Shown piece after piece: positions 1 through 53,400 of a DNA stretch of 64,000 bases. Every line of letters starts with the position of its first letter. Positions within the stretch are counted from its first letter, which is position 1. Below the pieces are notes generated by a model. It was not told the origin of the DNA, did no database searches, and saw only the letters and a program-made list of their open reading frames with translations. The DNA is taken from IMG/VR virus record IMGVR_UViG_2716884858_000003, positions 50,479 through 114,478 of that record. The stretch is one strand, 5' to 3'. This DNA is from a virus (lineage: Duplodnaviria > Caudoviricetes). The translations under genes and the position numbers were made by a program.

Positions 1-436
1 GCGGCCAGCGCGACGGCCGGTCCTCCCGTGCCGCTGCTCGCTACGGCCGCCCGACGACCCAGGGCCTGCCACCGTCCAAGTTCACCTAAAGCCTCGGACG
101 CGAGACCCGGACCAGCTCCCGGGCGTCCAGCAGCTCAACAACAGGCTTGCCGACACACCTGTCGCTTGGCAAGGCTCGGGCGTGCGGCGAGGGAATTCCC
201 CGTATGGCTGCGGCCAGCTGCATGCCGGCGACCGGGAAGTGTTGAGGGGGCGGCTTACGGTGTAGAGGAGCGGACTCACCTCCGCTGGCGCGGAGAGCAC
301 TTCGCGACCAGGTGCCACAGGCGGATGAGTTGCGACCCACCTCCGCTCGAGCGGAGGTGAACCGGTCGCCGCGCGTGGCTTCTGGTCCGAAAATGAAAGG
401 TGAGCCCAGGTCCGCGAGGTAGTGGGTGGGGTGTGT

Positions 437-1681
437 TCATGCGGCTTCGATGGGGTCGAAGCGGACGGTGAAGCCGAGGGCGTTGGCCTGCCGGGTGATG
501 CGTCGCATGGCGCGTTCCGGGTTGTGCCTGGCGTAGTAGTCGCCGCCGAGGTCGTGGAAGGCGACGTTGTCGGTGAGGATGTGCCAGACAGCGGTCAGCA
601 GGGTGTGTTCGAGGGCAACGAGGGCTTTCTTCTTGCCGAGACGGGGCACGAGGCGGTGGTAGCGGGCGCCGGGGTAGGTGCTCTTCCTGGTGTGGGAGGC
701 GGCCATGGCGGCGGTGCCGAGCGTGGCGCCCAGCCAGCGGTTTCCGTGGCGCCGACGTCCGGACTTGTGTTTCCCGGCGGACTCATGGTGGCCAGGGCAG
801 ACCCCGGCCCACGAGGCCAGATGGCCCGCGGTGCGGTAACGGGCCATGTCCCCGCCGGTCTCGGCGATGATGACCTCAGCGACGGCCCTGCCGACACCGG
901 GAATGGTCTGCAGCAGCTCAATCTGCTGGGAGAAAGGGAACATCTCGGCCTCGATCCGTGCGGACAGCTCCCCGATCGCCTCGGTGAGATGGTCGATCCG
1001 CTCCAGATGCAGCCGGCACAGGAAAGCGTGATGCTCACCGAAGTTCCCGGTCAGTGCCTCCACCAGTGCGGGGATCTTCGGCCGCATCCGGGCTTTGGCC
1101 ATCCCCGCCAGGGCGTGGACATCGCGCTCCCCCTCGATGAGCGCGTCCAGCATCGCCCGCCCGGAGACGCCCATGATGTCGGTGGCCACGCTGGAGAGCT
1201 TGATGCCCGCGTCCTCCAGCTCCTTCTCCAGGCGCTGGACTTCCCGGGACCGCTCCGCGGTCAGGCTGGCGCGGTAGCGGGTCAGATCCCGTAGGTGCCG
1301 GACCGGCTCGGGCGGCACGAACGACGCCTTGAGCAGGCCGCATTCGCCGAGCTGGCACAACCAGGCGGCATCGGCGACGTCGGTCTTGCGGCCGGGCAGG
1401 CCCTTGGCGTGCGCGGCGTTGACCAGGATCACGTTCAGGCAGTCCTCCAGCAGGTAGAACGCACCTCGCCAGTAGTCGCCCGTCGCTTCCAACACCACGA
1501 GGGTGACCTTCTCGGCGAGCAGCCAGTCCCGCAACTCGAGCAGGGAGTTGGTTACGGTGGCGAACGTACGGATCTCCTGCCGGCGCGAACGCCTGCCGGA
1601 AGGATTCGGGGTGCGGACGCACGCCTTGAGGTCCTTCTTGCCGATATCCAGCGCGGCACACCGCTCATGCAGTACGTCCAC
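437..1681 (-). CDS. IS110 family transposase/recombinase (414 aa)
   Basis: ALDIGK, VLEATG, RKTDVADA, TIPGVG, HHESAG motifs; GTG start at 1681 chosen by alignment with the two neighbouring copies (MDVLHERC). Confidence 0.95.
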   Translation of the reverse strand: MDVLHERCAALDIGKKDLKACVRTPNPSGRRSRRQEIRTFATVTNSLLELRDWLLAEKVTLVVLEATGDYWRGAFYLLEDCLNVILVNAAHAKGLPGRKTDVADAAWLCQLGECGLLKASFVPPEPVRHLRDLTRYRASLTAERSREVQRLEKELEDAGIKLSSVATDIMGVSGRAMLDALIEGERDVHALAGMAKARMRPKIPALVEALTGNFGEHHAFLCRLHLERIDHLTEAIGELSARIEAEMFPFSQQIELLQTIPGVGRAVAEVIIAETGGDMARYRTAGHLASWAGVCPGHHESAGKHKSGRRRHGNRWLGATLGTAAMAASHTRKSTYPGARYHRLVPRLGKKKALVALEHTLLTAVWHILTDNVAFHDLGGDYYARHNPERAMRRITRQANALGFTVRFDPIEAA

Positions 1682-1689
1682 GAATCCCT

Positions 1690-1910
1690 CCCAGGCAACG
1701 ACGTGACATGCCAACGGCACGCCGTCCGGAGGGACCACAGGGCTGAAGAGTCTGGTCCGCGTGCTGCCGCAACAATTGACGGTCCCTGTCAGCGATCCCC
1801 ATCGCCATCCTGACACGCGAGCTCACAAGGCATCACAGTGAAACCGGCGTTCCGGACGGAGCAGACTCATTTTCCCGCCTCCACGGCGGCCCGCGCAGCG
1901 GCCTGGGTTC
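1690..1910 (-). ncRNA. Putative bridge RNA region of IS-a
   Basis: Non-coding end with donor-matching CTGGTCCG (1752-1759) and candidate target guide CTGACACG (1810-1817); RNA boundaries approximate. Confidence 0.6.
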
Positions 1911-1953
1911 CTGGTCCGAAAATAACGTCTGAGCCTCCGCTGGGCAGGCGGTG

Positions 1954-3198
1954 TCATGCGGCCTCGATGGGATCGAAGCGGACGGTGAGGCCGAGGGCGT
2001 TGGCTTGCCGGGTGATGCGGCGGAGGGCTCGTTCGGGGTCGTGCTTGGCGTAGTAGTCGCCGCCGAGGTCGTGGAAGGCGGCGTCATGGGTGAGCATGTG
2101 CCAGACCGCGGTCAGCATCGAGTGCTCCAGGGCGACCAGGGCTTTCTTCTTGCCCAGGCGGGGCATCAGACGCATGTAGCGGGCGCCGAGGTAGGTGCGA
2201 TCGCGGGTGCGGGAGGCGGCCATGGCCGCGGTGCCCAGGGCGGCGCCGAGCCACCGGTTGCCGTGTCGTCTGCGGCCGGACTTCTGTTTGCCGGCGGATT
2301 CGTGGTGGCCGGGGCAGACACCGGCCCAGGAGGCGAGGTGCCCGGCGGTGCGGAAGCGGGACATGTCGGCGCCGGTCTCCGCGATCAACACCTCCGCGAC
2401 GGCCTGCCCGACTCCGGGGATGGTCTGGAGCAGCTCAACCTGGCGGGCAAAAGGGTGCATCTCCTCCTCGATCCGCGCGGAGATCTCCGCGATGGTGGCC
2501 TTGAGGTGGTCGATGCGCTCCAGGTGCAGACGGCACAGGAAGGCGTGGTGCTCGCCGAAGTTCCCGGTCAGCGCCTCCATCAGTTCGGGGATCTTGGGGC
2601 GCATGCGGGCCTTGGCCATCTGGGCCAGGGTGTGCACGTCGCGTTCCCCGTCGATGAGCGCGTCGAGCATGGCCCGGCCGGAGACGCCGAGGATGTCGGT
2701 GGCCACCGCGGAGAGCTTGATGCCTGCGTCCTCGAGTTCCTTCTCCAGCCGCTGGGCCTCGCGGCTCAGCTCGCCGGCGAGGGTGGTGCGGTAGCGGGTG
2801 AGGTCGCGCAGGTGCCGGATGGGCTCCGGCGGCACGAACGAGGCTTTCAGCAGCCCGCACTCGCCCAGCTGGCACAGCCAGGCCGCGTCCGCGACGTCCG
2901 TCTTGCGGCCGGGCAGGCCCTTGGCGTGGGCTGCGTTCACGAGGATGACGTTGAGGCAGTCCTCCAACAGGTAGAACGCGCCGCGCCAGTAGTCGCTGGT
3001 GGCCTCCATGACCACCAGGGTGATGTTCTCCGCGACCAGCCAGTCCCGCAGCTCCAACAGGGCGTTGGTGGTGGTGGCGAAGGTTCGGATCTCCTGGCGA
3101 CGGCTGCGGCGTCCGCTCGGGGAAGGGGTGCGCACGCACGCCTTGAGGTCCTTCTTGCCGATGTCCAGCGCGGCGCACCGCTCGTGCAGCACGTCCAT
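1954..3198 (-). CDS. IS110 family transposase/recombinase (414 aa)
   Basis: Same motifs; closely similar to the IS-a protein. Confidence 0.95.
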   Translation of the reverse strand: MDVLHERCAALDIGKKDLKACVRTPSPSGRRSRRQEIRTFATTTNALLELRDWLVAENITLVVMEATSDYWRGAFYLLEDCLNVILVNAAHAKGLPGRKTDVADAAWLCQLGECGLLKASFVPPEPIRHLRDLTRYRTTLAGELSREAQRLEKELEDAGIKLSAVATDILGVSGRAMLDALIDGERDVHTLAQMAKARMRPKIPELMEALTGNFGEHHAFLCRLHLERIDHLKATIAEISARIEEEMHPFARQVELLQTIPGVGQAVAEVLIAETGADMSRFRTAGHLASWAGVCPGHHESAGKQKSGRRRHGNRWLGAALGTAAMAASRTRDRTYLGARYMRLMPRLGKKKALVALEHSMLTAVWHMLTHDAAFHDLGGDYYAKHDPERALRRITRQANALGLTVRFDPIEAA

Positions 3199-3209
3199 GA
3201 GAGCCCTCC

Positions 3210-3424
3210 CCGTCTACGGCCGACAGCAACAGCGTGCCGTCCGGAGGGGCCACAGGGCTGAAGAGTCTGGTCCGCGTGCTGCAGCAACAATTGACGGTTC
3301 CTGTCAGCGGCCCCCGACGCCATACTGACGCTCGAGCTCATAGGCATCACAGATTCGCCGGCGTCCCGGACGGACACGCCCCCATTTTCCCGGCCTCACG
3401 GCGGCCGCGCAGCGGCCTGGGTTA
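3210..3424 (-). ncRNA. Putative bridge RNA region of IS-b
   Basis: CTGGTCCG (3267-3274) matches own end; CTGACGC (3325-3331) matches its flank at 3425-3431; boundaries approximate. Confidence 0.6.
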
Positions 3425-3516
3425 CTGACGCGTAAATAGATCCTGTTCAGGGTGGGTGTGGGTAGGGCTGGGCGCCCGGTGACCGTGGCGGGGCCGCCGG
3501 GTGTCCGGTTTGTCGG

Positions 3517-4761
3517 TCAGGCTGTGTTCTCCCTCGGGTTGAGGGTGACGGTGTAGCCGAGCTGGTTGAGCTGGTTGATGGCTCGGCGGGTGGCGCGTTC
3601 GGGGTCGCGTTGGGTGAAGTAGGTGCCGCCGAGCTCGTGGTAGGGGACGTTGTCGGTGAGCATGTGCCAGATCGCGGTGATGATCGAGTGCTCGACGGCG
3701 ACCAGTGCCCTGAGCGGGCCGCGGCGGGCGGTCAGACGCTTGTAACGGGCCTGCAGGTAGGTGTCCTTGGTTCTCACCGCGCCGAATGCCGCGAGGCCGA
3801 GGGCGCCTTTGAGGTAGGGGTTGCCGGGCCGGACCTTGGTGTTCTTGGTGCGGCCGGCGGATTCGTGGTGGCCCGGGCAGACCCCGGCCCAGGACGCGAG
3901 GTGCTTGGCCGTCGCGAAGCGGGTCATGTCGCCGCCGGTCTCCGCGACGATCACTTCGGCGGTCGCCTGGTTGATCCCGGGGATGGTGTCGAGCAGGTCG
4001 AGGGCGTCACGAAAGGGAGCCATCGCCTCCTCAACCCGCCCGGAGAGCTGGTCGATCATGGAGGTGAGCTGGTCGTACTGGTTCAGATGCAGGCGTGTCA
4101 GGAACGCGTGGTGCTCGCGGAAGCGTCCGGTCAGGGCCTCGGTGAGTTCGGGGATCTTGTTGCGGAGCTTGCGCTTGGCCAGGTCCGCGAGGACCTGCGG
4201 GTCGGCTTCGCCGCTGATGAGGGCTTCGAGCATGGCCCGGCCGGAGACGCCCATGATGTCGGAGGCGACCGCGGAGAGTTTGATGCCGGTGTCCTCCAGC
4301 AGTTTCTCCAGCCGCTGCACCACGCGGGAGCGTTCGCGGGTGGCGGTGGTCCGGGCCCGGGTGAGGTCGCGTAGTTCACGGACCGGTTCGGGCGGCACGA
4401 AGGAGGGCCTCACCAGGCCGTGGGCACCGAGCTGGGCCAGCCAGGCCGCGTCCGAGACATCCGTCTTGCGGCCGGGCAGGTTCTTGACCTGCCGGGCGTT
4501 GACCAGGATCACGTTCAAGCCCTCGGACAGCACGTAGTAGAACGGCTTCCAGTAGTCCGAGGTCGCCTCGATCACCACCAGCGTCACCCGTGCGGCGAGC
4601 AGATGGTCGCGCAGGGCGAGGACCGCGTTCGTCGTCGATCCCCACGTCGTGGTCTCGGTCGTGAAGGACCCCCGCCGCTTCGTACTCGGAGTACGGACAC
4701 ATGCCTTGGCGTCCTTCTTGCTGATATCGAGGCCCACGCAGCGTTCGTGCAGCACGTCCAC
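3517..4761 (-). CDS. IS110 family transposase/recombinase (414 aa), more divergent paralogue
   Basis: GLDISK, VIEATS, RKTDVSDA, TIPGIN, HHESAG. Confidence 0.95.
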   Translation of the reverse strand: MDVLHERCVGLDISKKDAKACVRTPSTKRRGSFTTETTTWGSTTNAVLALRDHLLAARVTLVVIEATSDYWKPFYYVLSEGLNVILVNARQVKNLPGRKTDVSDAAWLAQLGAHGLVRPSFVPPEPVRELRDLTRARTTATRERSRVVQRLEKLLEDTGIKLSAVASDIMGVSGRAMLEALISGEADPQVLADLAKRKLRNKIPELTEALTGRFREHHAFLTRLHLNQYDQLTSMIDQLSGRVEEAMAPFRDALDLLDTIPGINQATAEVIVAETGGDMTRFATAKHLASWAGVCPGHHESAGRTKNTKVRPGNPYLKGALGLAAFGAVRTKDTYLQARYKRLTARRGPLRALVAVEHSIITAIWHMLTDNVPYHELGGTYFTQRDPERATRRAINQLNQLGYTVTLNPRENTA

Positions 4762-4774
4762 GGCCTTGCTCCCT

Positions 4775-5054
4775 CCCGTGCCGAACAGCCGAGTACGCCG
4801 TTCCGGGAGGGCCAGGGTGAATCAGGAATTCTGACGCACGTGCTCACAACAACACTCCACGGTTCCCGTGGACGGCCCCCAGCACCACGCTGACCTGCGA
4901 GCTCACCGGCATCACAGAAATATCGGTTTCGGCCGGAACGGACACCACCACGATCCCGAACGGCATCACCCCAGGTCAGGGCAGACAGAAGCACCTCCGG
5001 CGCGCACACGGGATTTACCACGCCCCCGGCGCGCACCGAAGGTGCGCTGGATCG
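4775..5054 (-). ncRNA. Putative bridge RNA region of IS-c
   Basis: CTGACGC (4831-4837) matches own end; CTGACCTGCGA (4890-4900) matches flank 5055-5065 at 11/11; boundaries approximate. Confidence 0.65.
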
Positions 5055-5114
5055 CTGACCTGCGAAAAAGGGAAGCTTGAGGCAGGGGCGGGAAGATCGC
5101 GGACGATCCTCAAA

Positions 5115-5162
5115 GGACTCATAATCCGTCGGCCGTGGGTTCGAGTCCCACCCGCCCCACCA
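5115..5162 (+). pseudogene. 3' half of tRNA with CAT anticodon (probably tRNA-Ile2); att-site duplicate
   Basis: GGA-CTCATAA-TCC anticodon arm, GTGGG-TTCGAGT-CCCAC T arm, CCGCCCC-A-CCA end; no canonical D arm upstream. Confidence 0.85.
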
Positions 5163-5464
5163 CAAGCATGCCCTGGCCTGCGGAAACGTTCCTCGTCGGG
5201 TGTTGGAGCGTCAACTTCCGTCCAGCGGACGGAATCCGCTGCTCGCGTGCTTGGGGTCGTAGCGGTCTGTGGCGGTCGGCACTCCGCTGACCTGCGGGGA
5301 CGTATCGATCCGCTCGTGGCCCGAGCCATCGCGGGTCGCCGGTCTGGCGACGGAACGGTGATTTGAGGACGCTGGCAGGTCGCGGGGACCGGAAGTGTCC
5401 TCGAGGGTCGGTGGGTGCGGTGTGTGCCTGCTGTGGAGCGCAAGGTGTTCCTGGCCCTACGGCA

Positions 5465-5516: not shown

Positions 5517-8500
5517 TCAGTGCAGTGCGCCGACCTCGGTTGCTGAGAGCGTCCGTGGGTAGACGTGGAGGTCGGCGACGGAGCCGGGGAAGGCCAGGTA
5601 GGGGCTGGTGGCTGCTGCGCTGTTGACGCAGCCGCCGATGGTCAGGGGCATGGAGGAGTCGTACTGGGGGCTGAGGTTGGTGGCGGTCCCCATGAGGGTC
5701 CCGTTTTGGTAGAGGGCCATCGAGCCGGTGCCGGACTTTCCGGCGACGGGTGCCCGGTAGGCGGCGACGAGGTGGGTCCAGGTGCCGATGGGGCCGGTGT
5801 TGGGGTCTCCTTCTGCGGTGGGGAAGTCGGAGTTCTCGTCGTTGGTGGTGGTGGTCTGGAACATCCAGGCGCCACTGGGTTTGTCGTAGGAGATGTAGAA
5901 CGCCTGGTGTTGGGTGGTGCCCTGGCAGACAGCGGTGGTGCCGAGGGCTGAGTTGATCTTCACCCAGGCGGAGACGGTGTAGTCGCCGAGTGTGTTCACC
6001 GCGCTCTGCTTGCTCTTGAGGAAGCCGGTGTTCCCGTCGAAGGCGACGCTGCCGGCCATCCCGCTCGGTGCGTCGGTGCCGTAGGTGGCGCTGCCGGAAG
6101 CGGTGAACGGGTTGAGGGCGGCGGTGTCGGTCCCGCTGGTGGCGAGCTTCCATTCGTCCTCGGGCATCCCGTTGCCCCAGCCCGCCGGCACGATCACGCT
6201 GTCTGCGCCGGCCTGGTCGCTCGGCATGGCGTACGGGTAGGTGTGAACGTCGGCCACGGAGCCGGGGAAGGCGGCGTACGGCGTGGTCGCGTCGACGCTG
6301 TTGACGCAGCCGCCGATGGTCAGGGGCATGGACGAGTCGTACTGCGGGGTGACGTTGTTGGCCGTCCCCATCAGGGTGCCGTTCTGGTAGAGCGACATCA
6401 CGCCCGTGCTGGAGTCGCCGTCGACCGGGGCCGTGTACGTGACCAGCAGGTGCGCCCAGGTGCCTACGGCGGCGGTGTTGCTGTCTCCCTCTGCGGTGGG
6501 GAAGTCGGCGCTGGCGTCGTTGGTGGTCGTGGTCTGGAACATCCAGCCCTTGTTGCCGCTGTCGTAGCCGATGTAGAGGGCCTGGTGCTGGCTGGTGCCC
6601 TGGCAGATGGCGGTGGCGCCGACATCTGAATTGATCTTCACCCAGGCGGAGATGGTGTAGTCGCCGGAGGTGTTGACGGCGGTGTGGTCGCTCTCCAGGA
6701 ATCCGGTGCTGCCGTCGAACGACGCCGAGCCGGCGCCGGCGTTGACCGCGTTGGGGCCGTCGGAGCTGAAGGTCGCGCTGCCGACTGCGGTGAGCGGGTT
6801 GTCTGTGTTGCTGTCGGTGCCGTCGGTGGCCAGCTCCCAGTCGTCCTCGGGGGTGTCGCTGCCGGTGGCGAGCGGGACGATCAGGTTCGGCTTGATGTCG
6901 ACCACGGTGTTGGTGTCGTTGAGGTACTGGCTGGCGAGGTCGGTGTAGTAGGCGTTGGAGGGGTTGCCGCCTGAGAGGTCGGCCGCTTTCACGGTTGAGG
7001 AGGTGGTGTTGCCGTCCGTGGAGACCGCGGCGGCGAAGTCGATGACCTGGGTGGAGAAGCTGTCGAACAGGTAGCCGTTGACCAGCTGACGTGCGGATTC
7101 CTGGGTTGCTGTGCCTGGGTGGGCGGCGGTGAAGGGCGGGATGGTGGCGAGGTAGACGGTGATGTTGGAGTTCTGGGTGATCGGATTGTTGTTGGCGTCG
7201 TAGGTCTGGCTGTCGTCGGTGTAGTACGAGCTCAGCTGGCTGTTGAGGGAGGCCAGTCCGTTCTCCACGTTGGTGGCGCAGGTTCTGGCGTCGCTGGTGC
7301 AGTTGAGGAGGTCGGCGGCGCCGGTGGAGACGAGGACGGTGCGCACGTTGCCCTGGGCCAGCACGTTGCGGTCCACGGGGTTGAGCGCGTCTTTCGGGAC
7401 GACGCTGTTGGTGATCTGGGGCAGCAGGTTGTTGCTCAGGCTGGTGCTGTTGGTGCCCGCGTTGAGGACGCCGTAGTCCACGGAGTTGTCCCCGTTGGTG
7501 TCACTGACCAGAGCGTTGGTGATGGCGTCGCTGAGGTGGTATGGGCTGTTGCTGCTGCCTGCGGTATCACCGTTGATGCTCTGGTCGCCGTAGAGGACCA
7601 GCGAGCCGGTGGGGGTGGAGGTGGGGGTGTAGCTGGGGGTGGTGACGTCGATGCCGGTGAGGTAGGGCAGACCGGTGTAGGTGGTCTGCGTGTAGTTGGT
7701 GGCGGCGGTGTCACTGGTGCGGTTGGCGGCATCGCTGGCCCAGACGGGGGTCTGGGCCACGGCGTGGCCGGGCATCGCCGACGTTGAGCCGTGCACCTGC
7801 AGGCTGATCAGGACGGTCGCCTGTTGTGTGACGGGCAGGGTCACTGGGTTGCTGGTGGCGTCGCCACCTGCCGGGATGGTGACGGAGGGGGAGGCGGGGG
7901 TGCCGAAGGTCAGCGGGGTCGGGGTTGCGGTCGCGGTGGCGCCGCCTGCTGTGGTGTCCTGCAGTGCGACGGAGGCCGCGTCGAAGGTCACCGGGGTGGT
8001 GCCCATGGCGTTGGACAGGTGGATGCGTACGCCGTTGCCGGTGTCGGTACCGACACTGACGTGCGCTGGGATACGGAGCGTCTGCCCTGCGTTGATGCTG
8101 GCGGTGTTGCCGTTGGACTGCTGCACCTTGGCGGTGTCCTGGACCGAGGCCCAGGTGCCGACCCAGTGCTGGGGGCTTGATCCGCCGGTGAGGGTCATCG
8201 GCCGCAGGCCGAGCCCGAGGACGTGCAGGGAGGGCTGGCCTGCCTGGACGCCGTTGGTGAACAGCGGCAGGGAGATGCTGCTGACGACCGAGCCGGGGCA
8301 TTGCAGCGGGACGCTGATGGCGTAGATCTTGGGGCCGGGGCTCGGGCTGGTCTGTGTGTTGTTGCTGTGGTTCTCGTGGACCAGGCTGATGGAGGCCGCG
8401 GAGGCCGGGCCGGAGAGCCAGTCGGGCACGGTGTCCAGTTGGTAGGGCTGATCGAATGGGTTGTTTTGGTCCGCGCAGTTGTTCTTGGCGTAGGTGATGG

Positions 8501-11500
8501 TGCCGCCGGTGCCCTTGGCGGCGCCGCCGGTGGCGAAGGCGAGGAAGACCAGGGCGTCGCCGGTGTTGACCACTCCGCTGCCCGGCAGGGTGATGGTCTG
8601 GCCGGAGGCCAGCATGTTGTCGTACGTGCCGGTGCCGAACTTCGGCAGTGTGACGGTGGCGCCGTCGACGGTGACGGTCTTGTTGCTCTGCCAGCCCGAC
8701 GTGCTCGTCAGGTCGGATGAGTTGATGCTGTTGCCGGAGCCGTCGGCGTCCGCTGTGCTGGTTGTGGTGGTGAAGGTGCTGGTGGCGGTGTTGTTCAGGC
8801 AGCTGCTGGTGTCGTTGATCGCGCACGTGAGTGCCGAGCCGAGGCGCAGTACGTCGATGCCGGCCTGGTAGCCGGTGGAACTGGGGTTCTTGCCGCTCAG
8901 AGTGAGGGTGAGGGTGTGTACGCCTTGTTTGAGGGTGAGCAGCTGGCCGCCGGCGTCCTTGGGGATGCCGAGGTTGAGGAACTGGGTGGTGGTGTAGGAG
9001 TTGTAGGCGTCGAAGCCGCTGATCAGGGTGGACTGGGTGCTCTGGCCCGCGTCCAGGACCAGGCGGTAGATCCCGTAGTCCTTGCCCTTGGTCAGGTTCG
9101 CTCCGAAGCTCCAGGGGCCGTCCTTGGGGATGTCGAAGCTGAAGGTGGCGCTGTCACCGCTGATGACCTTCGAGGTGGTGCTCTTGTTGGCGAGCATGGC
9201 CTGGTAGCCGTCGGCGAAGTCGTAGCCGCTGAAGGCCGCCTGGCTGATCAGCTGGCCGCCGGTGCTGGTGGTCGTGGCCTTGGGTACGGCAGTGGTGGTG
9301 CCGTCAGTGTTGGTCGCGGTCCAGCCGCTGATCATCTTGTCGCCGTAGGCGTAGGTCGGGGTGCTGGTCCCAGCGTAGAAGACGTAGGACGTCTCGGAGA
9401 GGGACGTCGAGCCGGCCTGGTCCACCGCCTTGGCGTACAGCGTGTGAGGTCCGGCCGAGCCGGGGGCGAAAACGGGGGAGGCACTGCCGTTGAGGACCGA
9501 GGTCCCGGTGCCGGGACCGTTGTCGGACGTGGCGTAGTAGATGTTGCCCTTTGTGATTTTCGTGCTTGCTGTCAAGTGGATGACGCCGCTGCTGGTGTAC
9601 ACCGTGCTGGCGAGTGTGGCGTCCAGGGAGAACAGGTAGCCGGTGATGTTGTTGGTGTGGTTGTTGCCCAGGACGAAGGTGCCCTGGTCGCCGAAGGCGG
9701 CGCCGATCTGCTTGGCGGGGAACTGACTGGAGGTCACCGTGGGGGAGGGTGGGGCGCTGGTGTCCACGGTGAAGGTCTGGGTCTTGGTCCAGATGCCGGA
9801 GCCGGGGCCGACCCAGTAGCCTGCCGCGTTCTGTGCGGTGGCCTTCCAGGTGTAGGTGCCGTCCGGCAGGTGCGGGGTTGTCCAGTCGCTGCCGTTGGTG
9901 TTGTAGCGTGCGCGTTTTTTGGAGTCGAGGTTGGGGCCGAAGCCCTGGCCCACGAGGGTGCCTGAGGAGTTGTAGACGCTGTAGTCGATGCGCACCAGCT
10001 CGCTGCCGCCGGCCAGGTCGGGGTCGACCGCGCGGGCGGACAGCGTCGGGGTGTGGGTGGTGGTCATCGTCTTGCCCGAGCTGACGATGGACGGCTTGAT
10101 GGCGGGGGTACCGGTGCCGTTCTTGAGCTTGGGCCGGTAGCTGTAGGTGACCGACAGGGTGGCGCCCCCGCCGTAGGCGAGCTGCTTCCACTGGTAGGGG
10201 TCGTTCATGTCGGGCGACTGGACCATCAGCGTCATGCTGCTCCAGCTGCCGCCCGCCGCGCTCTGGGCCCGGGAGGTGACATCGAACTCCAGCGACGGCG
10301 GGCTGACCCAGGAGTTGGACCCCTCTTTGACCGGGCAGGTGCCGGCCTCCTTGCTCTTCGGGTCGGTGCCGAGGGCGCCGGTGCGCCCGCCGGGCTCATG
10401 CCCCCAGTACAGCGAGGAGGAGTTCCATCCGGCGGGGCGGTCGGTGCCGTAGACGGCGGCCGGGGTGTCGTCGCAGGAGGCGGCGGAGAGCTGGGTCACG
10501 TACAGCGAGGCATGACTGACCACGGCGCCCTTGATGCCGCTGGTGTTGATCTGGTAGTAGGTGCGGGCGCGCTCACCGTTGCCGGGGGCGGTGTTGTCCC
10601 ATCCCTCCCGGGCGTTGGTCGCTCCGCTGGTGGACGTCGAGTTGTAGACGTTCCACCCGTTGTCGGAGATCCGGGCCCAGTCCAGCTGGGAGGGCCTGCC
10701 GCTCCACTCCGGGTCCACGTAGACCGGGTAGGTGGTGGTCTTGGCGGTGAGCAGGGACTTGTCCAGGCCGAGCAGCTGCTTGCCGTGCTTGAGAGTCACA
10801 TGCACCCGGGCACGGTGCGTGCCGACCCTGGCTGCGGCGGTGTGCTCGGCCCGCGCGGCAGAGACGGTCGCCGTCCGGGCGAGCGCCTTGCCTCCGGCCT
10901 TCTGGCCGGTGCTGTCCCACATCAGCGCGGTGTCGCTGTGGAACACCGTCTTACCGGTCTGCTTGTCGGTGGCCTGGGCGCCGCCGTTCGCGGTGGCGGC
11001 CAGCTTGAGGTTGGCCGCAGTGGTGTTCCATGCGAGGCTTTGCAGCCGCGGATCGGCTGCGGCCTTGGGGGTCTTGACCACCAGGATCGAGGAGTAGCCG
11101 GAGGCGTCCGCGGTCAGCTGGAGGTCGACCCCGGGCAGCACCTCCGGGTAGGTGGCGGTGTCTTTGGAGATCACCGGTTTGGGGAGTGCGCCCGGCCAGG
11201 AGAAGCCCAGCTTGTCGGCCCCGTCGCGCATCGTGACCAGCGCGCCGGAGCCACCGTCGGAGAAGGCCACGTGCGTGACGGCGGCCTTGGGTGCCCAGGT
11301 CCCGTCCGGCTGCCGCACCAGGGTGGTGTCGATGGGGACCCATTTGCCTTGCTGCTGCACACGCTGGGGCATCGAGGTATCGGTCCGGGTGAAGGTGCCG
11401 TCCGGGTTGGCCACCACCTGGGTCCCGGTGCCGGTGAGCTGGTTGATGGTCACCGGCTGGCCGGTCGCCTTCGCCTGCGCGGACGCCGACTCCGTGGGGT

Positions 11501-11696
11501 TGAGGCGCCTGGCCGCGGGCTGGGCGCGGTCGCTTGGCGACGTGGCCTGGTGTGAGGAGGCCGGCGCGTCGGATGCGGCGTGGGCCGGTGCCGTGGCGGC
11601 CAGTGATCCGGCAGCCAGGGTGGCGACGACGGCGGCGGCGATCGGTCTCGACGTGGGGCGTCTGGACGCGTGCACGGTTTTGCGAGAAGCGGACAT
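5517..11696 (-). CDS. Large secreted RHS-associated protein with degenerate SGNH-like domain and two C-terminal LamG-like domains (2059 aa)
   Basis: Signal peptide ending AHA; ANPDGT..W.PIDTTL..YPVYVDP N-region typical of actinobacterial RHS partners; duplicated YTVSAWVK..WTHL..LYQNG..LTIGG domains. Confidence 0.85.
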   Translation of the reverse strand: MSASRKTVHASRRPTSRPIAAAVVATLAAGSLAATAPAHAASDAPASSHQATSPSDRAQPAARRLNPTESASAQAKATGQPVTINQLTGTGTQVVANPDGTFTRTDTSMPQRVQQQGKWVPIDTTLVRQPDGTWAPKAAVTHVAFSDGGSGALVTMRDGADKLGFSWPGALPKPVISKDTATYPEVLPGVDLQLTADASGYSSILVVKTPKAAADPRLQSLAWNTTAANLKLAATANGGAQATDKQTGKTVFHSDTALMWDSTGQKAGGKALARTATVSAARAEHTAAARVGTHRARVHVTLKHGKQLLGLDKSLLTAKTTTYPVYVDPEWSGRPSQLDWARISDNGWNVYNSTSTSGATNAREGWDNTAPGNGERARTYYQINTSGIKGAVVSHASLYVTQLSAASCDDTPAAVYGTDRPAGWNSSSLYWGHEPGGRTGALGTDPKSKEAGTCPVKEGSNSWVSPPSLEFDVTSRAQSAAGGSWSSMTLMVQSPDMNDPYQWKQLAYGGGATLSVTYSYRPKLKNGTGTPAIKPSIVSSGKTMTTTHTPTLSARAVDPDLAGGSELVRIDYSVYNSSGTLVGQGFGPNLDSKKRARYNTNGSDWTTPHLPDGTYTWKATAQNAAGYWVGPGSGIWTKTQTFTVDTSAPPSPTVTSSQFPAKQIGAAFGDQGTFVLGNNHTNNITGYLFSLDATLASTVYTSSGVIHLTASTKITKGNIYYATSDNGPGTGTSVLNGSASPVFAPGSAGPHTLYAKAVDQAGSTSLSETSYVFYAGTSTPTYAYGDKMISGWTATNTDGTTTAVPKATTTSTGGQLISQAAFSGYDFADGYQAMLANKSTTSKVISGDSATFSFDIPKDGPWSFGANLTKGKDYGIYRLVLDAGQSTQSTLISGFDAYNSYTTTQFLNLGIPKDAGGQLLTLKQGVHTLTLTLSGKNPSSTGYQAGIDVLRLGSALTCAINDTSSCLNNTATSTFTTTTSTADADGSGNSINSSDLTSTSGWQSNKTVTVDGATVTLPKFGTGTYDNMLASGQTITLPGSGVVNTGDALVFLAFATGGAAKGTGGTITYAKNNCADQNNPFDQPYQLDTVPDWLSGPASAASISLVHENHSNNTQTSPSPGPKIYAISVPLQCPGSVVSSISLPLFTNGVQAGQPSLHVLGLGLRPMTLTGGSSPQHWVGTWASVQDTAKVQQSNGNTASINAGQTLRIPAHVSVGTDTGNGVRIHLSNAMGTTPVTFDAASVALQDTTAGGATATATPTPLTFGTPASPSVTIPAGGDATSNPVTLPVTQQATVLISLQVHGSTSAMPGHAVAQTPVWASDAANRTSDTAATNYTQTTYTGLPYLTGIDVTTPSYTPTSTPTGSLVLYGDQSINGDTAGSSNSPYHLSDAITNALVSDTNGDNSVDYGVLNAGTNSTSLSNNLLPQITNSVVPKDALNPVDRNVLAQGNVRTVLVSTGAADLLNCTSDARTCATNVENGLASLNSQLSSYYTDDSQTYDANNNPITQNSNITVYLATIPPFTAAHPGTATQESARQLVNGYLFDSFSTQVIDFAAAVSTDGNTTSSTVKAADLSGGNPSNAYYTDLASQYLNDTNTVVDIKPNLIVPLATGSDTPEDDWELATDGTDSNTDNPLTAVGSATFSSDGPNAVNAGAGSASFDGSTGFLESDHTAVNTSGDYTISAWVKINSDVGATAICQGTSQHQALYIGYDSGNKGWMFQTTTTNDASADFPTAEGDSNTAAVGTWAHLLVTYTAPVDGDSSTGVMSLYQNGTLMGTANNVTPQYDSSMPLTIGGCVNSVDATTPYAAFPGSVADVHTYPYAMPSDQAGADSVIVPAGWGNGMPEDEWKLATSGTDTAALNPFTASGSATYGTDAPSGMAGSVAFDGNTGFLKSKQSAVNTLGDYTVSAWVKINSALGTTAVCQGTTQHQAFYISYDKPSGAWMFQTTTTNDENSDFPTAEGDPNTGPIGTWTHLVAAYRAPVAGKSGTGSMALYQNGTLMGTATNLSPQYDSSMPLTIGGCVNSAAATSPYLAFPGSVADLHVYPRTLSATEVGALH

Positions 11697-50420: not shown

Positions 50421-53400
50421 GCCGGCGAGGACGAGGATTTCGGCTCGGCATCCGTCCGCATCGTTCTGGACGACGCCGACGCCGTGGCGGACGCCCGGGA
50501 TCTTGGGCTCCGCATCAAGCGGGCCCTGGACCGCGCCACCCGGGACGCCGGCGAGCAGATCCGGGCCAACATCCAGCGCGGCCTGCGGGACGTGTCGGTC
50601 GCCGTCCAGGTGACCCCGGACATGTCCCAGCTCCGGGACAGGATCGAACGAGCGGCGTTCTTCGCCACCGCGGGCGCGGAGCTGCGGGTGCCGGTCCTGC
50701 CGGACCTGGACGACTTCGTCACGCGCATCCGGGCGCTGCTGGCGGGCGAGGAGTTCGAGGTCCGGGTCATCCCGAACCTGGACGACTTCGACGCCCGCAT
50801 TCGGGCGCACCGGGCCCCCACCATCACGGTGGACGTCGAGTTCGACAACGACGGCCTGGTGCGCGCCCTGTCGGGCCTGGGCAAGGTGGCCGGCCGCATC
50901 GGCGGCGTCCTGCTCAACACCCTCAAGTTCGCCGGTATCGGTATCGCCGCCGCCGGGGCCGCGGCAGGGATCGGCAAGTTCGTTGCCGCGCTGGCCCCGG
51001 CGGCCGGGCTCATCGCCGCGGGCCCCGCGGTCATCCTCGGATTTCAGTCCGCCCTGGGCGGCCTCAAGCTCGCGCTGTCCGGCGTCTCCGACGCGTTCAA
51101 GTCGGCGCTGACGGACAACGCGGAGAAGTTCGAGAAGTCGCTAGAGAAGCTCTCGCCCAAGGCCCAGGCGGCGGCGCGCGAGGTCCGCGCCCTCAAGCCC
51201 GCGTTCGAGGACCTGCGCAACACCGTTCAAGACGGGTTCTTCGCCCAGATCGAGGGGCAGATCACCAGCACCGCCAAAGCTCTGGGCGGGCCCCTCAAGA
51301 CCGGGCTGACCGGCATCTCCACCGCGTGGGGCGTGGCGGCCAAGAACGCCCTGGGGTACGTGAAGGGCTCCCAGGGCGTGGCCAACGTCCGCTCCATCCT
51401 GGGCGGTGCGCAGGCGGCGACCGAGGGCCTTTCCCAGACCACCAACCGGCTCACCGCCGGCCTGCTCCAGGTGGCCGCTGTCGTCTCGGACCGGTTCGGC
51501 GCAGAGCTGTCCGGCGGCATCGCCAACCTGGGCCAGCGGATCGGGGACTTCCTCCAGCGGATCGCGTCCGGCGGCCAGGCCGTGGCGTGGGTGGACGGCG
51601 CTCTCAACACCCTGGCCCGTCTCGGCGACATCGCCGGGAACGTCAAGGGCATCTTTACCGGGCTGTTCCAGGCCGGGGAGGGAGCCGGCGCCGGGGTGCT
51701 CAACAACCTCCAGACCGTCACCAAGGCCGTCTCGGAGTTCGTCAACTCCACCCAGGGCCAGACCGCCCTGGGGAACGTCTTCGCCACCGTCGGGCAGGTG
51801 GCCCAGCAACTCGGGCCGATCATCTCTGCCCTGGTGTCGAATCTCGGGCAGATCGCGCCGGCCGTAGCGCCGATCCTGGCCGGGTTCGGCCCTGTGCTGG
51901 TGGGGGTGATCAGCCAGCTCGGTGCCGCCGCCCAGGGGGCGCTGCCGCAACTGTCGGTCGCTCTGCAGCAGATCGGTGCCGCCGCCGTCTCCTTGGGCCC
52001 TGCCCTGCCGCCGCTTGCTGCTGCGGCGGCTGCCTTGGCCCGCTCCGCGGCTGACCTGGTCGTCGCCCTGGCCCCCGCGGTCACGTTGCTCGTCCAGTTG
52101 GTCGCCCCGGTGATCAACCTCGCGGCGCCGTTGATCGTCGCCGGTGCTGCGGTGTTCGGCCTGGTCAAGGTGATCAAGAGCGCCATTGCCATCTTCCGGC
52201 TGCTCCAAGGGGTCTGGCTCGCGCTGAACGCGGCGTTCGTGGCCTCGCCGATCGGCGTCATCATCGTGGCCGTCATCGGCCTGGTGGCGGCCATCTACCT
52301 GCTGTACCAGCGGTTCGCGATCGTCCGCACGGTGGTCGATGCCGTGGGCCGCGCACTGCGGGACGGCTTCCTGGCAGCGGTCGGGTTCGTGAAGTCCGCG
52401 GCCTCCCAGATCGCTGGCTTCTTCGTCGGCGCCTTCAACTCGGCCAAGTCGGCGGTGTCGTCCGGGATCGATGCCGTGGTCGGGTTCTTCACTGGCTTGC
52501 CAGGCAAGATCACTTCCGGGCTGTCGTCGCTGGGTTCCACCACCGGCCAGTTCTTCGTCAGTGCGTTCGAGACCGCCAAGGCCGGGCTGACGACCGCCAC
52601 TCAGGCCGTGGTCGACTTCTTCGTGGCGCTGCCTGGCCGGATCGTGGCCGCCCTGGTCGCGCTGCCCGGGCTGCTGCTCGGGGCCTTCACCAGCGCCGTC
52701 GCGTTTTTGATCATCGGCCTGCTGACCGTTGTCGCCGGGATCGTGTTCGTCTTCACCGAACTGCCCGGCCGGATCTACAACGCCCTGGTCGGTCTGGGTC
52801 AGTTCCTGATCACCGCCTTTGTGGCCGGGTTCAACGCCGTGACGTCCACGGTGTCCGACTGGATCTCGGCCACGGTCGCGTTCTTCCAGGCGCTGCCAGG
52901 CCGGGTGTACTCCGCGCTGGTCTCCATCGGCTCCTTCCTGCTGCGCGCCTTCACAGCCGGGTTCAACGCCACCCGCTCCGCCGTGTCCGGCTGGATCTCC
53001 TCCACCGTCGGGTTCTTCCGAGCCCTGCCCGGCCAGGTCTCCGGCGCGCTGGCGTCCCTGGGCTCGTTCCTGCTGCGGAACTTCACCAGCGCGTTCAACT
53101 CCGCACGGTCCGGGATCACCTCTTTCATCTCGTCCGCCGTGGGGTTCTTCCGGGCCCTGCCCGGCCGAGTCGCCAGCTCCCTGGCCTCCCTGCCCGGGCG
53201 GATCGCCTCCGCGTTCACCAGCGCCGCCGGCCGGGCGCGCACGGCGGTGTCCGGGCTGATCTCCGGGGTGGTCGGCCTCTTCCGCGGCCTGCCCGGCGCC
53301 ATCCTCGGCGCCATCGGCAACATCGGCGGCCAGATCATCGCCAAGGTCAAGTCCGGTATCCCGTCCAGCGTCCGCAAGTACCTGCCGTTCGCCAAGGGCG

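Follow-up and report, generated by a model that had tools for sequence, protein, structure and literature searches.

A window of 64,000 nucleotides from a virus of the Caudoviricetes (positions 50,479 to 114,478 of IMG/VR record IMGVR_UViG_2716884858_000003; 'the window' denotes this whole stretch) carries three complete IS110-family insertion sequences, here called ISa, ISb and ISc, which lie head to tail and without a gap on the minus strand between positions 382 and 5054. Sequence comparisons make it probable that ISc arrived first, at a site matched by its own guide, and that the lineage of ISa and ISb is aimed by its target guide at the right ends of ISc-type elements. The array occupies an intergenic stretch of a phage-like contig; an adjoining terminase open reading frame (ORF) and the flagging of the contig as a virus record indicate a phage or prophage setting, by all appearances a Streptomyces phage region.

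Read on the minus strand, each element consists of a non-coding left end of 229-293 nt, a gene and a short right end. The core trinucleotide CTG on the plus strand, CAG on the minus strand, is present at all four junctions (382, 1911, 3425 and 5055). ISa and ISb terminate in ...ATTTTCGGACCAG and ISc in ...ATTTACGCGTCAG (minus strand). All three ORFs contain the Pfam domains DEDD_Tnp_IS110 and Transposase_20, and all three proteins reach the NCBIfam IS110 equivalog NF033542 with 259-263 bits (cut-off 140). The long non-coding left end, the core at both junctions and the absence of terminal inverted repeats, for which no tool-based search was made, are those of the IS110 group. Nucleotide identity (blastn) is 82.8% between ISa and ISb, 70.9% between ISb and ISc and 68.4% between ISa and ISc, and no further copies of these elements occur elsewhere on the 114-kb contig that holds the window. 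The elements and the two halves of the site into which ISc presumably inserted are as follows.

382-1910, minus strand: ISa, 1529 nt, IS110 group; right end ...TTTTCGGACCAG with core at 382-384, left end starting from 1910; boundaries set via relatives
437-1681, minus strand: ISa transposase/recombinase ORF, 414 aa, with domain matches
1911-3424, minus strand: ISb, 1514 nt, IS110 group; placed directly after the ISc right end
1954-3198, minus strand: ISb transposase/recombinase ORF, 414 aa, with domain matches
3425-5054, minus strand: ISc, 1630 nt, IS110 group; right end ...CTATTTACGCGTCAG, core at 3425-3427
3517-4761, minus strand: ISc transposase/recombinase ORF, 414 aa, with domain matches
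5055-5065, minus strand: left half of the site into which ISc inserted; core CTG at 5055-5057 plus 8 nt, 20 nt upstream of a tRNA-like gene
372-384, minus strand: putative right half of the original target, from the element boundaries; core copy at 382-384 plus flank

Searches for the empty site returned matches of the left flank to CRISPR arrays only, in 57 of 301 Streptomyces genomes; in the phage collection positions 1-384 had no match, and the only hits were 48-nt matches to the 3′ half of the tRNA-like gene. Because the empty site was not found, we infer the former contiguity of 384 and 5055.

Within the otherwise conserved backbone of the three aligned left ends, guide-type segments occupy homologous columns, as the original prediction had proposed from the window itself.

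1808-1817, minus strand: ISa left-target guide, CGTGTCAG followed by GA, the 2 nt with which its own left end opens; 7/8 against the ISc right end, 5/8 against the present flank
1752-1759, minus strand: ISa left-donor guide, CGGACCAG; equals its own right end and also the ISb right end
1836-1845, minus strand: ISa segment at the right-target-guide position, ...TTTCA then CTG; assigned by homology with the ISc clade, its match to the right flank being the core only
3323-3332, minus strand: ISb left-target guide, AGCGTCAG followed by TA; GCGTCAG plus TA equals the junction of ISc right end and ISb left end, 9/9
3267-3274, minus strand: ISb left-donor guide, CGGACCAG; equals its own right end
3350-3359, minus strand: ISb segment at the right-target-guide position, ...GAAT then CTG; implies a right flank that starts with A
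4888-4900, minus strand: ISc left-target guide, TCGCAGGTCAG followed by CG; identical to the chromosomal flank 5055-5065 followed by the 2 nt that open the ISc left end
4915-4923, minus strand: ISc right-target guide, ATATTT then CTG; complementary to the core and the AA of the far flank 380-384
4831-4838, minus strand: ISc left-donor guide, TGCGTCAG; the part GCGTCAG is identical to the right end of ISc

All motifs on which the original prediction was built can be read directly in the plus strand where it had placed them: CTGGTCCG at 1752 and 3267, CTGACGC at 4831, 3325 and 3425, CTGACCTGCGA at 4890 and 5055, CAGAA at 4915, TTCTG at 380 and CTGACACG at 1810. The donor-type segments equal the elements' own ends in ISa, ISb and ISc, and the guides of ISb and ISa agree with the ISc right end at 7/7 and 7/8, respectively, again as claimed. 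For the two target-type segments of ISc the outcome is mixed. The agreement with the left flank, 11/11, stands firm: the 11-mer shared by the guide at 4890 and the flank at 5055 occurs twice in the window against 0.03 expected, a count of two being reached in none of 100 shuffles. The proposed pairing of CAGAA with TTCTG is present and, at 5 nt (the core plus 2 nt), weak when taken alone; it lies within a segment that covaries with the right flank across the ISc clade. The 7-mer CTGACGC by itself is at chance level, with 15 matches in the 64-kb window against 21 expected, so that the ISa and ISb matches carry no weight by letter count; their weight comes only from the homologous position of the segments and from other genomes.

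Relatives were therefore compared: 153 loci with protein relatives of ISb or ISc, 60 stretches containing a conserved 19-mer of the ISa/ISb-type left end, and extra loci from named genomes. RNAalifold, applied to the left ends of 23 diverse members, yielded one conserved structure with two multi-branched loops. The first loop is closed by the stem ACCG/UGGY and displays on its 5′ side a variable segment ending in CUG and on its 3′ side a variable 8-mer ending in CAG; the second, closed by GGGGGCC/GGCCCC, carries a second variable 8-mer on its 3′ side. Pairing is found in 96.5% of the cells of the alignment, against 37-45% with slid partners, nine pairs being changed on both sides, and the covariation score of 0.269 against 0.185 for shuffled alignments was equalled in 0 of 500 shuffles; the structure was derived from the same sequences on which pairing was then scored.

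The ISc clade serves as a positive control for the function of the variable segments. Its first 8-mer, the left-target guide, agrees with the left flank at 4.65 of 5 variable positions (n=51), and complementarity between its 5′ segment and the right flank amounts to 2.78 of 5 positions, compared with 2.15 after shuffling (0/2000; n=49). The second 8-mer equals the element's own right end among the relatives compared. The two bases that follow the first 8-mer track those with which the element's own left end begins, and the one behind the second 8-mer is in most cases the base that opens the right flank. A mutual-information search, whose signal is dominated by subgroup structure, recovered covariation with the start of the left end only for the 2 nt after the target guide and did not find a right-donor guide. 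The ISc motif GGGATCG, complementary to the start of its own left end, was considered for that role and dropped, as it is not conserved in relatives. The non-coding ends have no family match in Rfam at E values up to 1, and a scan of positions 1-5300 for sigma-70-type promoters gave no site, other promoter types being outside that scan; that a -35 box might be supplied by the ISc end is conjecture. Taken together, folding and covariation, both of which the original prediction had offered as checks, support the notion that the segments act as bridge-RNA guides along the logic known from IS621 and its bridge RNA; the left ends would accordingly be the source of an RNA that guides the recombinase.

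The preference for ISc-type ends recurs in Streptomyces. Close relatives, with at least 84% amino-acid identity to ISb, account for 13 independent insertions in this genus, while three further loci are uninformative owing to a contig edge or N. An ISc-type right end, belonging to a full, truncated or 168-nt miniature copy, adjoins eight of the 13 (ISb in the window and loci L004, L245, L005, L006, L007, L013 and L263), in agreement with what the original prediction had led one to expect of other copies. Another IS110 right end adjoins three (ISa in the window, L010 and L056), and the remaining two (L248 and L008) occupy sites without a recognisable IS, with flanks that still resemble the end. 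The partners differ in their state of preservation. ISb in the window follows a full ISc, L005 a 357-nt remnant, and L004 and L245 the 168-nt miniature. L006 and L007 follow an ISc-type end whose transposase C-terminus is 96% and 88% identical, respectively, and which is cut by the contig edge; L013 and L263 follow a remnant of about 20-45 nt, on the far side of which lies the right flank typical of one ISc subgroup. Both L005 and L007 carry the guide of ISa, CGTGTCAG, and are placed at ISc-type ends; the flank of L007 has the T that matches its guide. One isolate contig spans 1911-3438 and continues into sequence like the miniature ISc-type element.

The miniature deserves a description of its own. 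It comprises the start of an ISc-type left end and a right end of the same type, with flanks that fit the ISc guide (L004 3603-3770; L245; L265-L270), and is a non-autonomous IS110 derivative. Six full copies are present in two Streptomyces genomes (G003 and G006), of which two are occupied by an insertion and four are free. The upstream partner is often reduced to its 3′ part, the last 20-400 nt (L005, L010, L056, L073, L157, L208, L013 and L263), which may reflect simple decay or deletions that start at the junction. In a metagenome contig (run X5, near 3437 and 449), sequence resembling the 3′ end of the ISa gene adjoins an ISb-like left end with 13 nt of an ISc-type right end; this single low-depth contig is a hint of an ISa-like element whose terminus is of ISc type.

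It is conceivable that these pairs go back to one old insertion that created a composite, which then spread as a unit, so that recurrence would not mean repeated homing. Near-identical pairs of an E-type and an A/B-type element at eight places in G001, a metagenome-assembled genome, are what such a history would produce. In Streptomyces, however, the partners range from full ISc through the 357-nt and ~20-45-nt remnants to the miniature, the outer flanks and guide variants differ among loci, unoccupied partners and solo copies occur, and the outer ends of the composite fit no guide pair in either element. We consider inheritance of the adjacency quite unlikely, and repeated insertion guided to ISc-type ends the better account.

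The wider ISa/ISb clade provides a broader view. After collapsing identical junctions it comprises 51 events, of which 44 are informative, and in half of these (22/44) the C-terminus of a same-strand IS110 transposase ends no more than 350 nt upstream, a lower bound since miniatures and short remnants score negative. The same test finds such a neighbour in 0 of 68 entries of the ISc clade (not deduplicated). At least six lineages, 44-83% identical to ISa/ISb, supply the partners, and wherever a partner's own donor guide is readable it equals the junction sequence, which identifies the junctions as true partner termini. Insertion thus recurs across hosts at a fixed position and in a fixed orientation within the terminus of another element. 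In G001, eight of nine copies lie behind one other IS110 type, and eight of the 11 copies of that type are occupied. At L012 (about 3580-3770), a single transposase gene is followed by two right-end-like termini spaced by about 60 nt, a tandem repeat of the non-coding end that resembles the one described in a 2026 preprint.

These counts also bear on the suggestion that no targeting is involved, the array having arisen by homologous recombination, by duplication and divergence, or by chance clustering in a tolerant spot. IS elements do cluster in dispensable DNA, and the site is intergenic in a phage-like contig. Against this stand the intactness of ISa, ISb and ISc at pairwise identities of only 83%, 71% and 68%, joins that are precise to the base at the core and in a single orientation, the recurrence of the same junction in unrelated genomes and the empty tally of the ISc clade, and we regard untargeted origin as very improbable.

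The left-target guide tracks the neighbour. Over the 22 tandem events it matches the end of its own neighbour at 3.5 of 5 variable positions, compared with 2.7 when neighbours are permuted (0/5000), the match being 5/5 in three events, 4/5 in ten and at most 3/5 in nine. GCGTCAG accompanies C-type ends, CGGTCAG E-type ends, GGACCAG an A/B-type end (L184) and CGTGTCAG a D-type end (L056), where guide and end agree at 8/8. The outermost of the eight guide positions is usually mismatched, which leaves an effective guide of about 7 bases including the core.

The closest competitor holds that capture proceeds through donor-type half matches only, by means of the incomer's donor guide or the resident's own system, the likeness of the target guide being incidental. 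The left flanks of ISa, L010 and L185 equal the elements' own donor guide (5/5) and match the target guide poorly. Moreover, the accessible text of 10.64898/2026.08.14.744561 reports tandem IS110 modules that keep left-donor-only matches, and that preprint and 10.64898/2026.08.31.748434, as far as their accessible text goes, describe half matches as sufficient. Yet the donor guide differs from the neighbour's end (2-3/5) in 15 of 19 readable tandem events, ISb included (2/5), while the target guide matches at 4-5 of 5 positions in 13 of 22 and shifts with the lineage of the neighbour (C-type, D-type, E-type and, in L184, A/B-type). As a general explanation, donor-only capture is unlikely.

Several observations weigh against aiming by the target guide. 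The tallies of independent events were collated by hand. In the ISa/ISb clade the right-target segment fits the right flanks weakly (1.58 against 1.21 of 5; 38/2000 shuffles). Nine of the 22 tandem events have at most 3 of 5 variable positions in agreement, and three of these nine match their own donor guide at 5/5. Guides and ends are alike throughout the family (xxGxTCAG), so that any pair gives 5-6/8 matches, and at least 11 events of the clade occupy sites without a recognisable IS. It is also important to point out that a guide of 7-8 nt alone cannot explain the preference for IS ends, given that the 7-mer occurs 15 times in the window; either recognition reaches further into the end, or insertions at other sites are weeded out by selection. 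T-rich bases at -12 to -8 are often common to the flanks of the clade, some non-IS sites included.

On the reading that we favour, targeting of ISc-type ends by the left-target guide, ISc would have inserted first, at the site matched by its own bridge-type RNA. In the ISa/ISb lineage, the target loop of the left-end RNA would hold the left-target guide GCGTCAG or GTGTCAG, core CAG included, which is the sequence of the last bases of ISc-type elements. A circle of this lineage would then insert, in a single orientation, exactly after the core of the ISc right end, and the outcome would be a head-to-tail array with hybrid junctions. ISb would have arrived in this way, and ISa either before ISb, by its target guide (7/8), or later at the right end of ISb, through a donor guide equal to that end.

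The sequence of events proposed in the original prediction, ISc, ISa, ISb, fares unevenly. That ISc came first follows under either order of the other two. Precedence of ISa over ISb is not established: its present flank TTTTCGGACCAG equals its own donor guide at 12/12, and flanks of donor type also occur in L010 and L185 (5/5 variable positions). In the order ISc, ISa, ISb, ISa enters with a 7/8 guide match and the first right-flank base of ISb is G; in the order ISc, ISb, ISa that base is A for both. An A follows the right end in nine of ten relatives of the Streptomyces group (a hand count that excludes L153, which duplicates L005, and both window copies). The order ISc, ISb, ISa, with ISa entering by a donor-type match, thus fits at least as well as ISc, ISa, ISb, and ISa, L010 and L185 fit insertion of a circle at a resident right end by what may be donor-type pairing alone. 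Fragmentary metagenome contigs from four sequencing runs hold no information on the order. Homing on the ISc end, which had been claimed for both elements, holds for ISb (7/7, adjoining ISc), and ISa possibly came by way of the ISb end. Of RNA-guided piggybacking, the homing part is borne out; joint movement is not established, the paired copies in G001 being the only hint. The further idea that this actinobacterial IS110 clade is a transposon of transposons, with a target guide that evolves to follow the donor half-site of whichever other IS110 lineage abounds in the host, and with a hybrid junction that mimics a circle junction and could thus maintain expression of the incomer's RNA and recombinase and allow joint spread of the pairs, is speculative and, at present, rather doubtful.

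The surroundings of the array contain further features. ARAGORN calls a tRNA-Met of 78 nt at 5085-5162, whose best Rfam clan match, at only 26.6 bits, falls below threshold. The 48 nt at its 3′ end are matched in 16 phage records, of which 15 belong to Mycobacterium phages, Che9d and Yoshi among them. Instead of an intact gene, this may be a hybrid tRNA or the attachment core of a phage. As a target of the ISa/ISb type it was rejected, since the sites of relatives lie elsewhere. On the other side, 20 nt from the array, a CRISPR-type repeat of 29-30 nt at 271-299, which we take to resemble type I-E repeats, is separated by a 32-nt spacer from a degenerate second copy at about 333-362. This stretch matches arrays with a period of about 61 nt (57/301 Streptomyces genomes), there is one full copy only in the 114-kb contig, and the occurrence of a mini-array or of solitary repeats on a phage-like contig may merit attention independently of the IS array. 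The ORF ending at position 87, which extends upstream in the contig (L277), encodes a terminase large subunit (PHROG 2, E 5e-35); its LAGLIDADG homing-endonuclease domain is probably an intein. A 2059-aa ORF on the minus strand (5517-11696) has two C-terminal Laminin_G_3 (concanavalin-like) domains and no other Pfam match.

Bridge-RNA recombination by IS621 and the IS110 group is the obvious frame of reference, and the statements that follow refer to the accessible text of the papers cited (PMC11208160, Durrant 2024; PMC11208158, Hiraizumi 2024). As in IS621, the recombinase combines DEDD and Tnp domains, a structured RNA would be provided by the left non-coding end, a long guide has the sense of the left flank and core and a short guide is complementary to the core and right flank, the donor guide equals the right end, the core is repeated at both junctions, and extra bases adjacent to the guides fit the product junction in a handshake-like manner. 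Unlike IS621, whose core is CT, the core here is CAG, and on the RNA the left-target guide has the segment pairing with the right flank on its 5′ side; the IS621 RNA has its bottom-strand guide near position 53 and its top-strand guide near 74-82. A right-donor guide was not found here, and the preferred target is the terminus of another IS110 element.

Insertion into the ends of mobile elements is known from IS4321 and IS5075, which insert in Tn21 ends (cited in the accessible text of PMC11187229). There, too, a member of the same superfamily lands at a fixed place and in a single orientation in the end of another mobile element. In their case the target is the end of a Tn3-family transposon, here it is a sister IS110 and, more precisely, the other element's donor half-site; the IS1111 group, as far as described there, has subterminal repeats and a guide RNA on the other side of the gene, downstream. 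Since the guides lie upstream of the gene in ISa, ISb and ISc, the ISa/ISb lineage works like the IS4321/IS5075 kind without being a member of the IS1111 group. The REP-targeting elements ISPpu9 and ISPpu10 (PMC12288879; 10.64898/2026.03.19.712850, again in their accessible parts) share with it a multi-copy repeat in non-essential DNA as target, although the repeat here is the terminus of a family member that is itself an active transposon. A target loop of one IS110 aimed at the donor end of another is not described in the accessible parts of the literature searched; the supplementary target tables of PMC11208160 and PMC11187229 might list such cases. What would be new is the sister donor end as target; insertion in mobile-element ends and tandem IS110 loci are already known. 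If correct, the lineage represents a natural bridge-type RNA whose programmable target loop is directed to a sister element's donor site. Nested IS110 arrays could then form in a simple manner, and the incomer would have a safe landing pad whose copies increase along with the host element. The natural guide-target pairs from several lineages are material for asking how much of the target these recombinases read, and the model accounts for the frequent tandem or truncated pairs in the annotation of Streptomyces and related genomes.

Closest in appearance are the expanded or tandem IS110 loci with half-match recombination in the two 2026 preprints (10.64898/2026.08.14.744561 and 10.64898/2026.08.31.748434), whose accessible text describes donor-type pairing for IS621 in vitro and for tandem copies of a single element. 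Shared with these loci are repeated insertion where an IS110 is already resident, modules arranged head to tail and boundaries with a match to the left donor half only, which fits ISa behind ISb; in the window only ISa has such a boundary (flank TTTTCGGACCAG), the ISb flank agreeing with its donor guide at 2/5. The tandem units there are, by the detection rule, at least 95% identical and are ascribed to donor recognition by the resident. Here the identities are 82.8% (ISa/ISb) and 70.9% (ISb/ISc), different lineages with 62-64% amino-acid identity are joined, and it is the target guide of the incomer that matches. Two routes into occupied loci, by target guide and by donor guide, can thereby be told apart, whereas the preprints, in the parts accessible, treat copies of one element only.

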